Source: Escherichia phage vB_EcoM_G37-3. From it: a stretch of 64,000 bases of DNA. Positions 13,453-56,962 of this stretch are shown one piece after another. Every line of letters starts with the position of its first letter. The stretch's first letter is position 1. The notes beneath the pieces were generated by a model, which saw only the letters and a list, made by a program, of their open reading frames with translations, was not told where the DNA came from and made no database searches. Both the position numbers and the translations under genes were made by a program. The DNA lies in the sequence record MK327941.1; one strand, 5' to 3'.

Positions 13453-13457
13453 TTATA

Positions 13458-13483
13458 AGCCGTCCTTGTGGACGGCTTTTTTG
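13458..13483 (+). terminator. rho-independent terminator after MTase gene
   Basis: agccgtcc-ttgtg-ggacggct followed by TTTTT. Confidence 0.6.
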
Positions 13484-13492
13484 TATGTGTTT

Positions 13493-13500
13493 TATAAATA
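13493..13500 (+). promoter_or_regulatory. late promoter motif TATAAATA upstream of gene 9
   Basis: Exact TATAAATA about 27 nt upstream of ATG 13528. Confidence 0.55.
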
Positions 13501-13527
13501 ATACATCATAACATGAGGAATTAAACA

Positions 13528-34295: not shown

Positions 34296-34334
34296 GTTTA
34301 TTTTTGGAATCCTTTGGATTCCTTTTTCTTTTTG

Positions 34335-34342
34335 TATAAATA
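34335..34342 (+). promoter_or_regulatory. late promoter motif TATAAATA upstream of gene 24
   Basis: Exact motif about 38 nt upstream of ATG 34380; preceded by hairpin ggaatcc-ttt-ggattcc. Confidence 0.55.
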
Positions 34343-34379
34343 TGATATATCCATTAAGGCAAATACAGGATTCATAAAC

Positions 34380-35621
34380 ATGACTCATATTTTTACTGAA
34401 CTGTTGCGGGAATCTACTTCCTCAGTAGCTAACCAGACAGCGCGACCGCAACTATTATCATTAACTCGCGCGGTAAACAACCTGATTTTCTCTGATCTGG
34501 TAGCAATCCAGCCAACGGATCAACCAGTATCTGCATTGTACGGCCTACGTTATCTTAATCATGATGGTCAGATGACTTTCCGAACTGCTGCAACCTACGG
34601 TGGCGCGGTTGGTGATCGCACAGAGATTGAAGAGTTTTCAAAAGAAAAATCTTATGACGAAGGCGCACTATTCAAATCAGGCGATGTTGTATACGAAGTT
34701 GTGACCGCTGGTACAGTCGGTGAAGATGCCGAAACTCCAGAAGCTGCGATCTTTAAAGGCGTAATGACAAACAAAATTCGTTTCTATAGCGATTGTGCAT
34801 CGGTAGAATACTTTGAAGATAAAAACACCGAAATTGCGTCTACCTCTATGCAGTTTGACAAGTGGCAAGTTAATGTAGGTTCTCGTAAACTGAAAACCTC
34901 GTTCACCACTGAATTAATGCAGGATCTTGAGGCAAGCCAAATCAACTCTGAAAACTCTGTAATTGATCTTCTGGCTACTGTTGCTTCCGAAGAGATCAAC
35001 AAAGATATTATTCAGAAGTTGATCACTGTATCATCTCGCTATAAAATTAAAGGGATCACCCCTGATGGCGTACTTTCTCTCGTTAGCGTTCAGGATGCAC
35101 CAACACAAGCGCGTGAACTTTACCGCTATGCTTGCGAGATGAGCAATCAAATGTTGCGGACTTCCTCCTTTGCTGGTACATACGTTTTGGCGTCTTCTCG
35201 CGTGGTTGGCCTCCTGCAATCATCCGGTTGGATGGAAGAAACCGACAATGCTCTAAGCGAAGGTCGTCTGCGTTGCGGTCTGGAAGTGTACGCAGACACG
35301 ACAACACCTTTCGATTATATGCTCGTTGGTTGTAAGCACATGATCGGTGATATGGAGAGTGTAGGTTCTCTGTTCTACTCCCCATATACAGAAGCCGACG
35401 GCGCTGGCGCGTATAAGAGCGTAATTGACCCTAATAGCTTCCAGCATCATGTAGCTATTATGAATCGTTATTCACTCTCTGTCAACCCATACACATCAAA
35501 AGTTGATCAGGAAGAACACCAGGTCATCAAGGGTGACGATTGGGGTAAAATGGCTGGGCGTTCAGAAATGTCCTACATTTTAGGAATCGAACTGCCACCG
35601 CTTGAGATTGACAACGCTTAA
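34380..35621 (+). CDS. 24: capsid vertex protein gp24
   Basis: Start at ATG 34380 (MTHIFTELLRESTSS..), which resembles T4 gp24 N-terminus; track start 34314 lies upstream of the late promoter. Confidence 0.85.
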   Translation: MTHIFTELLRESTSSVANQTARPQLLSLTRAVNNLIFSDLVAIQPTDQPVSALYGLRYLNHDGQMTFRTAATYGGAVGDRTEIEEFSKEKSYDEGALFKSGDVVYEVVTAGTVGEDAETPEAAIFKGVMTNKIRFYSDCASVEYFEDKNTEIASTSMQFDKWQVNVGSRKLKTSFTTELMQDLEASQINSENSVIDLLATVASEEINKDIIQKLITVSSRYKIKGITPDGVLSLVSVQDAPTQARELYRYACEMSNQMLRTSSFAGTYVLASSRVVGLLQSSGWMEETDNALSEGRLRCGLEVYADTTTPFDYMLVGCKHMIGDMESVGSLFYSPYTEADGAGAYKSVIDPNSFQHHVAIMNRYSLSVNPYTSKVDQEEHQVIKGDDWGKMAGRSEMSYILGIELPPLEIDNA

Positions 35622-36209
35622 CTAAATATCTAACCAAGACAAGTCAGATCCGCCAAAGATTTTTTCGACGGCGGATCTATTTTCTTGATGATATAAGTTA
35701 AAACATGGTATCCCATGTCTACGGGCAACATAAACAGCAATTCGAGTTCCTCCCGAAACGATTCCATTAACTTCTTTCGCCCAGAATATCACACAATCTA
35801 CAGGGTCATCAAGTGTCTCACCTAAGACTTGAGCGACATTTCTAGAAAACAGATTTTGCATGTATAACGGTATAGAACGAGGATTATCATAAACGTGTTC
35901 TAATTCATCCATCGCCAGATTTTTTTGTTCTAAGGTTTGCCATGCAATCACATCATGACCGTTATGCTTGTGGTCATAAAACTTCCAATTTGGAATGAAA
36001 ATTTTTCTATAATCTGGATCGTAATACTTCATGAAAGCATTGTCCATACCGTAAGCCCCTCCAGAATGCGCTACAACGCGATTTTCTGACAATACCCTCC
36101 CAATGGTACTAGCCATTATCAAAATGTCGCTAGGCGCTTTTCTAGAGCCGATTAAAGCACATCTACGAAGTGGTTTTACTCCAAATAGATCTTGTAACTG
36201 GTCAAACAT
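35622..36209 (-). CDS. DprA/Smf-like Rossmann-fold (SLOG) protein
   Basis: 195 aa; LIGSRKAPSD..VVAHSGGAYGMDNA and GIVSGGTRIAVYVARRHGIPCFNL resemble DprA core; GGAGGA SD; convergent with gene 24. Confidence 0.5.
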   Translation of the reverse strand: MFDQLQDLFGVKPLRRCALIGSRKAPSDILIMASTIGRVLSENRVVAHSGGAYGMDNAFMKYYDPDYRKIFIPNWKFYDHKHNGHDVIAWQTLEQKNLAMDELEHVYDNPRSIPLYMQNLFSRNVAQVLGETLDDPVDCVIFWAKEVNGIVSGGTRIAVYVARRHGIPCFNLYHQENRSAVEKIFGGSDLSWLDI

Positions 36210-36361
36210 AATATTTCCTCCATAGAAAGCAATATCATACTACAAGTTAATAACAAATACAAGTATCCGCGTAGCGGAAGCGAGCACAGCGAGCAATAAA
36301 ACACTTCCAGTAATTGATTAATAAATGTTCGAAACAAATTTTTATTATTCTATAAGATAAG

Positions 36362-36387
36362 TCTTCGTTTTGATCATAATTTAATCA
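36362..36387. repeat. 26-bp direct repeat copy 1 (tcttcgttttgatcataatttaatca)
   Basis: Exact match to copy at 36511-36536. Confidence 0.7.
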
Positions 36388-36510
36388 TACATGTAAAAAC
36401 TACACAAAAGGATATCGCTTCGCGAACTCCTACGGAGTATAACATTTGTGTTACAATATGTAGTGATTAATAATTAACCAAAGATACATTTTCTATGTTC
36501 TAAAGATCTT

Positions 36511-36536
36511 TCTTCGTTTTGATCATAATTTAATCA
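36511..36536. repeat. 26-bp direct repeat copy 2
   Basis: Exact match to copy at 36362-36387; both within an ORF-free AT-rich spacer. Confidence 0.7.
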
Positions 36537-36588
36537 AACAGTATTAATATTGTGCACATGTAAACTAAAATTATGTTAATAACAGATA

Positions 36589-36616
36589 CAAAAAAGCCGC
36601 CCCGAAGGACGGCTAA
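36589..36616 (-). terminator. rho-independent terminator after reverse gene 36623..37060
   Basis: Reverse strand agccgtcc-ttcg-gggcggct then U-run. Confidence 0.6.
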
Positions 36617-36622
36617 TGTTAA

Positions 36623-37060
36623 TTATTTGTTGATAACGATCTGATTTCGGCGAATGGTAACATTACTCTTAGAGATGATCAGATCATCCGGCACTACGTT
36701 AGTTTTGTATGGTTGGAAGCGAACAAGCATCTGATTGCGTTTAGACCCTTCCTTAATCTTGATTTCCATCTGAATATTGTTGCCTACGTGAGCAACCGCA
36801 ATTTCACCTTTATTCTCATAGACCCACTTGCTGGTAACGTCTCCAGCAAAAGCCTTAATAACTTGCAATGCTTCGTCGTATGCGGTAGAGCTGTGAACTT
36901 TCAGAAGGCCAGCCGTAGCAAGACGGGAGCAGGTGATCGCCGGAGATTGCCAAACATCAACATTAATTTGCTCAATCAGAGTAACACCGCCCTGGTCAAC
37001 TGCTTTGAATGCTTCAAACATTGTCTTTTTCATTGCTACGTGGTTTTTACGGAATTTCAT
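36623..37060 (-). CDS. hypothetical protein (145 aa)
   Basis: ORF track; GAGGTG SD upstream of ATG 37060. Confidence 0.6.
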   Translation of the reverse strand: MKFRKNHVAMKKTMFEAFKAVDQGGVTLIEQINVDVWQSPAITCSRLATAGLLKVHSSTAYDEALQVIKAFAGDVTSKWVYENKGEIAVAHVGNNIQMEIKIKEGSKRNQMLVRFQPYKTNVVPDDLIISKSNVTIRRNQIVINK

Positions 37061-37106: not shown

Positions 37107-37382
37107 TCAGGACATTGCCCGTTTGAATGCGTCCATTATAACAGTGTTATTTGGCTTGTCAACACGTTTTTGAACTTTATTTTTAAATTTTTTGTTGATG
37201 TGGTGTTTACGATAAACAACCTTTTCACGGTTGGCGTAAGCCTCTCGTGCATCTTTTACCATCAACCATGCCTTAGCCGCATCTTGTCCGCTGATCCCGC
37301 CAATCTTCTTAGCAATATCAACAAAATTAAGACCGTGGTCTTCGCGTAGCATGTAAACCATTAACGCTGTTTTCTTGTCCAT
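37107..37382 (-). CDS. hypothetical protein with HTH-like segment (91 aa from internal Met)
   Basis: Track ORF 37107..37490; start preferred at ATG 37382 (MDKKTALMV..) to avoid a 108-nt overlap with the upstream ORF; LNFVDIAKKIGGISGQDAAKAW is HTH-like. Confidence 0.5.
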   Translation of the reverse strand: MDKKTALMVYMLREDHGLNFVDIAKKIGGISGQDAAKAWLMVKDAREAYANREKVVYRKHHINKKFKNKVQKRVDKPNNTVIMDAFKRAMS

Positions 37383-37744: not shown

Positions 37745-37768
37745 AAAAAGCCACCCCGAAGGATGGCT
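37745..37768 (-). terminator. rho-independent terminator after hoc
   Basis: Reverse strand agccatcc-ttcg-gggtggct followed by U-run. Confidence 0.55.
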
Positions 37769-37779
37769 GATAGATTTCA

Positions 37780-56920: not shown

Positions 56921-56935
56921 TGCCTTTTTTAAAAA

Positions 56936-56955
56936 AGCCGACACTAAGGTCGGCT
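56936..56955 (-). terminator. rho-independent terminator after reverse gene 56963..57271
   Basis: agccgac-ctta-gtcggct followed by U-run on reverse strand. Confidence 0.55.
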
Positions 56956-56962
56956 AATAAAA

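Follow-up and report, generated by a model that had tools for sequence, protein, structure and literature searches.

The spacer at positions 36210 to 36622 of a 64-kb stretch of the Escherichia phage vB_EcoM_G37-3 genome (MK327941.1; the whole stretch is referred to here as the window) is a real, nonrandom, conserved, and selectively constrained noncoding element that is very probably regulatory. It separates two co-oriented minus-strand early genes, open reading frame (ORF) 145 upstream and a DprA-like gene downstream, and contains an exact 26-bp direct repeat; its two copies form the best-kept cores of an AT-rich cassette of ∼80 to 100 bp that was duplicated in tandem long ago. Tentatively, and with somewhat less than even confidence, the spacer is interpreted as an array of stem-loop/promoter cassettes that insulates and reinitiates transcription and resembles the promoter-early stem-loops (PeSLs) described in this phage group. 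The window represents Krischvirus (the RB49/phi1/GEC-3S group of T4-like coliphages), with 99.4% identity to GEC-3S over 1.5 kb, and the locus was found in 58 Krischvirus phage records. The spacer is an unannotated element: no earlier description was found in the literature searched, and the records examined carry no annotation in it beyond the terminator T1 and the ribosome-binding site discussed below, except for spurious ORF calls.

The 26-mer, TCTTCGTTTTGATCATAATTTAATCA on the plus strand, had been noticed in an earlier note made from the sequence alone. A match scan located it, as that note had claimed, in two exact copies, A (36362 to 36387) and B (36511 to 36536), with no further match at ≤3 mismatches in the window; matches were likewise absent from all 100 dinucleotide-preserving shuffles, the chance expectation being none. 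The note had also proposed a search for the 26-mer in relatives, whose lack of a conserved copy would have counted toward refutation; this proved not to be so, as every one of the 58 Krischvirus records has the repeat. Beyond the 26-mer, the copies match at 89% over 38 nt, and a blastn self-comparison places the 26-mer at the core of a gapped direct duplication of 77 to 78 nt (78% identity, one gap), the copies of which, units A and B, are spaced 149 bp apart and have no second locus within the window. On the minus strand, unit B consists of a left arm, TGATTAAATTATGATCAAAACG, a center, GATCTTTAGAAC, and a right arm, TTGGTTAATTATTAATCA; in unit A, the left arm, or −35 region, corresponds to copy A of the 26-mer, with its TGATCA core, and in unit B it corresponds to copy B. 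Both units have inverted ends, TGATTAA...TTAATCA, and the palindrome-like 17-mer TGRTTAATNATTAAYCA in unit B has its sole window match at 36464 to 36480. The similar "catgtaaa(a)ct" segments said to follow each repeat do exist (36391 to 36402 and 36557 to 36566), but at differing distances, because copy B has ∼18 extra bases; on the minus strand they read TAGTTT(TT)ACATGT, just 5′ of each unit.

The spacer was rightly described as AT-rich (GC content of 0.27 to 0.30 versus ∼0.40 to 0.47 in the flanks) and as not a tRNA, given that ARAGORN found no tRNA or transfer-messenger RNA in it. The statement that it lacks ORFs stands for ORFs of ≥30 amino acids (aa) wholly inside it, of which there are none on either strand, but a 53-aa ORF with a TTG start (36176 to 36337, minus strand) overlaps its left edge and is annotated in some GenBank records. 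In the close relatives L003, L013, and L015, 1-nt indels fall inside the span of this ORF and would disrupt its frame. Some records, such as those of SSG23 (L011, 1467 to 1628) and UPWr_E1 (L005, 913 to 1629), either annotate the 53-aa ORF within the spacer or lengthen the DprA-like gene by 43 codons; because the indels in close relatives fall in those frames, both calls are probably annotation artifacts. A protein-coding gene or pseudogene was rejected since the small ORFs are not conserved in frame or sequence across lineages, and the mini-ORFs beginning with MIK or ML were discarded as well, as they lack a Shine-Dalgarno sequence (SD) and shift in frame or sequence between lineages.

Selective constraint was assessed in an alignment of 18 Krischvirus-level genomes (16 from GenBank or IMG/VR and two metagenomic contigs), using Fisher tests against the third codon positions of four flanking genes (216 of 738 variable, 29%), a yardstick to be read with the caveats that the genomes are related and mosaic and that third positions are not strictly neutral. 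Both units, the hairpin blocks M4 and M6, and the block of the proximal promoter candidate P1 showed 3 to 10 times less variation than third codon positions, whereas the three linkers did not differ from these positions (Table 1). This block-wise footprint argues for a function of the units and hairpin blocks in the window phage and against low local mutation or a recent origin. The two 26-mers are identical to each other in 14 of the 18 genomes. In G2248 (L004) and PHB13 (L012), the A of GATC/TGATCA (window positions 36373 and 36522) is changed in both copies; the copies carry different bases (TTGTTC and TTGGTC), and the changes are therefore independent. They could reflect selection against a GATC/TGATCA restriction or methylation site, or mere tolerance.

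Table 1 Features of the spacer and its surroundings in the window, with variable sites among 18 Krischvirus-level genomes and P values against third codon positions
Feature	Position	Strand	Variable sites	P value	Description
T1	36595-36614	−			Intrinsic terminator; AGCCGUCC-UUCG-GGGCGGCU, then UUUUUU
Hypervariable stretch	36560-36594	−	16/35 (46%)	0.057	Just downstream of T1; includes TTGTATCTGTTATTAAC at 36591-36575
Unit B	36464-36540	−	6/77	1.3e-05	First copy in gene direction; upstream extension TAGTTTACATGT plus ∼18 extra nt, to 36567
M4	36414-36447	−	0/34	2e-5	AAAUGUUAUA, then hp1, then hp2; between unit B and unit A
hp1	36437-36427	−			CUCC-GUA-GGAG
hp2	36425-36415	−			UCGC-GAA-GCGA; GCGAAGC core at 36423-36417
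Unit A	36315-36391	−	5/77	2.9e-06	Second copy in gene direction; preceded by TAGTTTTTACATGT at 36402-36389
Units A and B, pooled			11/154	5e-10	
M6 (hp3 block)	36266-36294	−	1/35	2e-4	Hexamer repeat GCTCGC-TGT-GCTCGC (36294-36280), then hp3
hp3	36278-36266	−			UCCGC-UAC-GCGGA; terminator-like in scan
P1	36234-36262	−			Proximal promoter candidate; −35 TTGTAT (36262-36257), 17 nt, −10 TATGAT (36239-36234)
P1 plus SD			4/53	4e-4	
Three linkers			21-25%	Not different	
SD and ATG of DprA-like gene	SD 36221-36217; ATG 36209-36207	−			SD GGAGG; ribosome-binding site annotated in Makalu records
DprA-like gene	35622-36209	−			RB49ORF164c; PHROG 768, E = 3e-60; annotated so in relatives
ORF145	36623-37060	−			RB49ORF165c; upstream; last gene of the hoc-24.3-ORF145 early operon
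Gene 24	34314-35621	+			Late gene; convergent with DprA-like gene

The same layout recurs in deeper relatives. Scans of IMG/VR and of JGI metagenomes yielded one intermediate relative (L018) and two close ones, and a protein search with ORF145 yielded ten further clusters (55 to 92% identity), for seven of which contigs were retrieved. A spacer of 326 to 590 bp lies between the ORF145 homolog and the DprA-like gene in L018, L027, L029/L030, and L032; the contig of L028 ends within the spacer. On the gene strand, the order in the window is T1, variable stretch, unit B, M4, unit A, M6, P1, SD, and ATG, and the relatives follow the same order (terminator, unit, GCGAAGC mini-hairpins, unit, GCTCGC-type block with a GC hairpin, −35/−10 boxes, and SD), which is kept in metagenomic relatives with flanking proteins down to 55 to 58% identity. 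Four of the five lineages have their own pair of units, spaced 125 to 170 bp apart, and L028 has a single unit. Within genomes, the units are 83% (L018), 77% (L029), and 75% (L032) identical, compared with 47 to 71% between lineages; in the window and in L027, the within-genome value of 70% is not above the best between-lineage values. Homogenization or coevolution of the two copies is thus clear in some lineages only.

Promoters were sought with a simple σ70 position weight matrix (PWM), with dinucleotide shuffles (n = 500) as controls. P1 is the best sense-strand match in the spacer and the sole consistently placed promoter: its boxes occur in the same place in relatives (TTGTTT-17-TATGAT, TTGTTT-17-TATAAT, and TTGATT-17-TATAGT), so that the position is kept in five lineages, with a weak −35 box of the form TTGTWT or TTGATT. 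The units of relatives carry boxes much closer to consensus. In the sense direction, in the center of the unit, these are TTGAAC-17-TATAAT and ATGATC-17-TATAAT in L032 (scores reached by 1 and 5 of 500 shuffles, respectively); ATGATC-17-TATAAT in L029 and TTCATC-17-TATAAT in L028, with TATAAT at the same position; and TTGACA-17-TGTAAT in both units of L018. Antisense promoters were found at one homologous position in L028 (TTGATG-17-TATAAT; 14 of 500 shuffles), L027 (27/500), L018 (44/500), and L029 (48/500), with the reverse of the left arm as the −35 box and the reverse of the TTAATTATACT box as the −10 box. The TGATCA core of the 26-mer is thus the predicted shared −35 region of face-to-face promoters in the relatives, and the near-consensus σ70 boxes in these homologous units indicate that the element is promoter-related in origin. 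For the T4-type late promoter, TATAAATA, inspection by eye gave only inconsistent 7-of-8 matches in some lineages.

The stem-loops of the spacer begin with T1, which forms its right end and went unmentioned in the earlier note. In a terminator scan, T1 has a stem of 8 pairs, 6 of them GC, and qualifies as a rho-independent terminator, with a U·G wobble that works only on minus-strand RNA. It is annotated as a terminator in the GEC-3S, G2248, and Makalu records and is listed as the RB49 97821-97838 terminator (Nolan et al. 2006). The sequence after T1, TTGTATCTGTTATTAAC, is a copy of the P1 −35 region without a usable −10 box, and TTGTATTTGTTATTAAC, which follows hp3, repeats this post-T1 sequence with 94% identity (36246 to 36262 versus 36575 to 36591). 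The region looks like three successive modules, each a stem-loop followed by an AT-rich promoter-like stretch, and the repetition of the P1 −35 region after T1 is what would be seen had a single stem-loop/promoter cassette given rise to the modules by duplication.

Compensatory changes offer suggestive, not decisive, evidence that the pairing of the mini-hairpins is maintained. The GCGAAGC core of hp2 is invariant in five lineages, and two of its outer pairs show compensatory changes; hp3, directly upstream of the P1 −35 box, is 100% paired in five lineages, with a compensatory change of a CG pair to GC in two of them. The covariation of hp1 to hp3 comes from five sequences only, and 32 to 50 of 500 shuffles reach the observed score. 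A hairpin of unit length was rejected as a conserved RNA feature: folds of whole units are significant only in L029 (z = −3.2 and −4.9) and in unit 1 of L032 (−5.4), whereas L027 has no significant whole-unit hairpin, and the z-scores of the window units are ∼−1 for the gene strand; for the plus strand they are −2.6 and −0.6.

PeSLs of RB49 and phi1 combine strong, AT-rich σ70-like promoters with terminator stem-loops; the stem-loop may sit upstream of the −35 box, the 3′ end is formed by the SD and start codon of the gene that follows, and genes of the hoc region are associated with PeSLs (Arbiol et al. 2010, PMC2839356). PeSLs of T4-like phages are also covered by Comeau et al. 2014 (PMC4122927). 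The spacer is read as a PeSL-like array because it runs from a strong terminator to a stem-loop, −35/−10 boxes, SD, and ATG between co-oriented early genes; because the units of relatives carry near-consensus promoters; because the P1 boxes and hp3 hold their position in five lineages; and because the units, M4, the hp3 block, and P1 plus SD are constrained. The indels at the locus, namely, the single unit of L028 and a gene pair inserted in L035 (see below), fit cassette-type plasticity. In such an array, T1 and the mini-hairpins would block or dampen transcripts arriving from the hoc-24.3-ORF145 operon; the DprA-like gene would be transcribed anew from P1 and, at least in relatives, from promoters inside the units, the TGATCA-centered 26-mer supplying the −35 region and flanking spacer of the unit promoters. 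The twin units most likely belong to this cassette stack. The anatomy of the region, its conservation and constraint, and the promoter boxes in relatives are direct observations; that any of these promoters fire is an inference, as is the cause that keeps the degenerate units of the window phage under selection.

Several observations weigh against this interpretation. The −35 box of P1 matches the consensus at 3 of 6 positions, and no early or late promoter, P1 included, was predicted in the RB49 spacer by Nolan et al. 2006. The remark in the earlier note that the repeat is not obviously a promoter holds for the window, where the unit region is no better than shuffles, with 423 of 500 matching or beating it in the sense and 410 of 500 in the antisense direction. 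The boxes of the window units are degenerate: TGATCA-18-TAGAAT (or ATGATC-17-TATAGA) in the center of unit A; TGATCA-17-TAGAAC in unit B, where the best −10 box lacks the key final T; and TTGATC-17-TATTAA on the plus strand. Furthermore, the strongest promoter differs between lineages, so that promoter activity alone may not be what selection preserves, and the interpretation leaves unexplained why the window units stay constrained despite their poor boxes. By sequence, the units lie outside the dispersed PeSL family and have no kin in the window. Finally, the literature searched yielded no transcript data for the locus and no Krischvirus transcriptome, and nothing on RB49ORF164c or RB49ORF165c that bears on the spacer.

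The constraint on units without good promoter boxes would be accommodated if the units were operator or iteron sites. The dyad-symmetric TGATTAAT/ATTAATCA-type arms in both units would then be the target of a protein that either controls transcription locally or marks an origin of replication in these MotA-less phages, a possibility that is considered rather unlikely. It is consistent with the inverted ends of the units and their matched change to TGGTTA...TAACCA in relatives, with the right arm, which is a perfect 17-bp palindrome in L029 and a near-perfect one in window unit B, and with the greater similarity of copies within genomes than between lineages in L018, L029, and L032, as if the copies were coevolving with a protein. 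ORF145, the fold of which gives a weak winged-helix-like match and the model of which weakly resembles an initiator winged-helix domain, has a possible nucleic acid-binding role. However, across lineages its putative recognition helix does not vary, whereas the sequences of the units have diverged, a contrast that speaks against coevolution. Only two repeats are present, at a distance of 125 to 170 bp, unlike the several closely and regularly spaced 17- to 22-bp repeats of iterons; the motif occurs nowhere else in the window; and nothing points to DnaA boxes or to origin activity.

The mini-hairpins raise the alternative, judged improbable, that the spacer encodes one or two small noncoding RNAs or a structured leader. 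The start of such RNAs would lie within or beside a unit and their end at the GC mini-hairpins that come next, with U-rich tracts, giving sense RNAs of ∼85 to 90 nt per unit and an antisense RNA of ∼50 nt across M4. GC mini-hairpins with U-rich sequence do lie 50 to 70 nt downstream of each unit, and this alternative draws further on the compensatory changes in hp1, hp2, and hp3, on the invariance of M4 in the 18 genomes, on the strong promoters of relatives that point into M4 from both sides, and on the lack of a conserved ORF. The stems of 4 to 6 bp with poor U-tracts are weak terminators, however, the window lacks a credible promoter for such RNAs, and an Rfam scan of the spacers of the window and two relatives returned only subthreshold matches on the terminator, far below gathering scores. 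The restriction of significant whole-unit hairpins to L029 and L032 and the shuffle scores of the covariation also count against it.

It is decidedly improbable that the twin units and M4 constitute a new kind of cis-acting element for T4-like phages, either an origin or DNA-level site that would be recognized by ORF145 or a convergent-promoter RNA switch that would time DprA-like expression. If true, the origin or DNA-level version would make up for the lack of MotA-type origins in RB49-like phages.

Very unlikely is the view that the repeat is functionless, a neutral tandem duplication or the scar of an ORF cassette lost between two PeSLs, with copies alike only through gene conversion in a highly recombinogenic phage: the region is indeed bounded by two similar stem-loop plus TTGTATNTGTTATTAAC elements, like PeSL-flanked cassettes, relatives show indels at the locus, other T4-like genera have the DprA-like gene without the spacer, and the promoter boxes of the window phage are degenerate, but the units, M4, and M6 vary far less than third positions while the linkers vary at that rate, the layout survives where flanking proteins are 55 to 58% identical, direct repeats 149 bp apart, if not under selection, are expected to disappear soon through unequal exchange, remains of neither a decayed ORF nor rnlB were found, and the copies differ in L004 and L012, so that conversion is not continuously homogenizing them. 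The earlier note had listed three candidates: regulator-binding sites and a small RNA locus, both weighed above, and a scar of cassette insertion, of which the resemblance to PeSL cassettes is retained, whereas decay is not, the region being constrained.

Known repeat classes were also considered. Miniature inverted-repeat transposable elements (MITEs) have terminal inverted repeats, multiple dispersed copies, and target-site duplications; a MITE or transposon remnant was rejected because the units, although they have inverted ends, occur in both copies at one conserved locus per lineage and nowhere else. CRISPR arrays have at least three regularly spaced identical repeats of 24 to 48 nt and unique spacers of 26 to 72 nt, whereas here there are only two copies at an interval of 123 nt, and the sequences flanking the repeats are homologous too. 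A genome-wide operator motif was likewise dismissed, given that the 17-mer palindrome is confined to a single site and the half-site ATTAATCA is not enriched in the window; nor is the heptamer GCGAAGC (9 occurrences versus 4.9 expected, with 11 of 100 shuffles reaching 9).

In the other T4-like genera compared, the DprA-like gene lacks the spacer. In RB16 (L037) it directly follows rnlB (RNA ligase 2), with overlapping ends; in Proteus phage PM2 (L038), two small ORFs lie between rnlB and the DprA-like gene, and in Klebsiella phage KLB23 (L039), an HNH endonuclease gene does. No rnlB was detectable in the window, and a tblastn search with RnlB (best E = 0.38) led to the rejection of an rnlB relic in the spacer. 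From this comparison of gene orders, the DprA-like gene of the RB49 group seems to have been separated from rnlB and provided with a control region of its own. In a contig of the metagenomic relative L035 (Logan SRR21291472, 2939 to 3820), an insertion with adjacent ORFs of 197 and 73 aa separates the stop codon of ORF145 from the T1-type terminator. The 197-aa ORF has weak DUF723/CapR matches, and the two together resemble a split GIY-YIG/T5orf172-like mobile endonuclease gene, in which case the junction of ORF145 and T1 would be an insertion hot spot.

Several features of the neighborhood merit mention. The model of ORF145 has Foldseek similarity to uncharacterized proteins of T4-like phages, including "gp24.3" of phage CC31, and the gene adjoining ORF145 (37107 to 37382) encodes gp24.3 (DUF2774); the two may be distant paralogs with a winged-helix-like fold. 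The DprA-like protein scores under the cutoff of Pfam DNA_processg_A, and GGAGG lies 7 nt ahead of its ATG at 36209. Gene 24 and the DprA-like gene abut with zero intergenic bases (35621/35622) and no terminator between them, so that late transcripts of gene 24 should continue into the DprA-like gene as antisense RNA. Two textbook PeSL-type elements lie on the minus strand nearby: at 37768 to 37707, a UUCG terminator is followed within 15 nt by TTGACA-16-TATAAT, and at 37162 to 37135, upstream of ORF145, there is a second perfect TTGACA-16-TATAAT, with an extended TG. Both can serve as internal standards for the appearance of a strong early promoter in the window phage. An early promoter upstream of ORF165c, Pe:98401, at about window position 37176, is listed in the supplementary tables of Nolan et al. 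2006. Look-alikes of T1 occur at 13455 to 13502, 37745 to 37771, and 56931 to 56958, and the first of these, in the opposite orientation, also shares ∼25 nt of flank, which suggests a small dispersed family of terminator-plus-flank sequences.

The genomes of T4-like phages are tightly packed, and a selected noncoding stretch of 400 bp with a layout kept at ∼55% flanking identity is unusual. If it is a stacked PeSL array, PeSL cassettes could also be fixed, selected control regions and not only shuffling junctions, and tandem copies could persist despite the high recombination rate of the phage. If instead the units are protein-binding or origin-like sites, they would bear on the timing of gene expression and on the start of replication in MotA-less "pseudo-T-even" phages. 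Either way, the spacer marks an unannotated functional element shared by the 58 Krischvirus records that were found, which include several phages obtained for therapeutic use.

The element can be compared with several known systems. Iteron origins usually have at least three direct repeats of 17 to 22 bp at a regular short spacing, an AT-rich unwinding element, and an initiator gene. With iteron-type origins (plasmid or RctB type) and with T4 oriE, the spacer shares an AT-rich, ORF-free stretch, direct repeats, and an adjacent small gene with a weak initiator-like model; it differs in that its repeats are long and only two in number, 149 bp apart, where such origins have multiple short iterons in phase, and in that this gene belongs to no initiator family. 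Tandem or face-to-face promoter regions with operators, as in the early control regions of phages and in antidefense (acr/aca-type) promoters whose operators are inverted repeats, have in common with the spacer repeated dyad-symmetric AT-rich sites overlapping the −35 box and downstream of the −10 box, a small adjoining gene for a putative DNA-binding protein, and, in the relatives, sense and antisense promoters on one core. Unlike in classical operators, the arms of a unit are ∼60 bp apart and the unit is much longer. Among small hairpins, hp2 has the invariant GCGAAGC heptamer of d(GCGAAGC)-type mini-hairpins, hp1 and hp3 are C-GNA-G-type triloops, and T1 has a C(UUCG)G loop, as in hairpins of T4 transcripts.

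The comparison with PeSLs is the most extensive. In the published cases, each PeSL stands singly before an ORF(an), has a consensus promoter and often a G/C-tract stem, and is one of ∼50 in a genome, whereas the spacer has three stacked modules without an ORF between them, and the stack is conserved across lineages rather than variable. The lack of ORFs between modules and the position of the units outside the dispersed family indicate that the element is not a plain PeSL member. As for promoter boxes, P1 is weak but placed, the window units are at shuffle level, and those of relatives are strong. Conversely, the spacer and PeSLs occur in the same phage group and in the plastic hoc neighborhood, direct repeats of this kind have been proposed as substrates of cassette gain and loss, and both are intergenic composites of an AT-rich stretch, σ70-type boxes, a stem-loop, and a terminal SD and start codon. 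The low GC content and the GGAGG followed by ATG correspond to the AT-rich and SD/start features of PeSLs, and putative counterparts of the stem-loop are T1, with its 8-bp stem and U-run, hp3 ahead of the −35 box, and hp1 and hp2 upstream of unit A. The proximal module of hp3, P1, and SD fits the published description.

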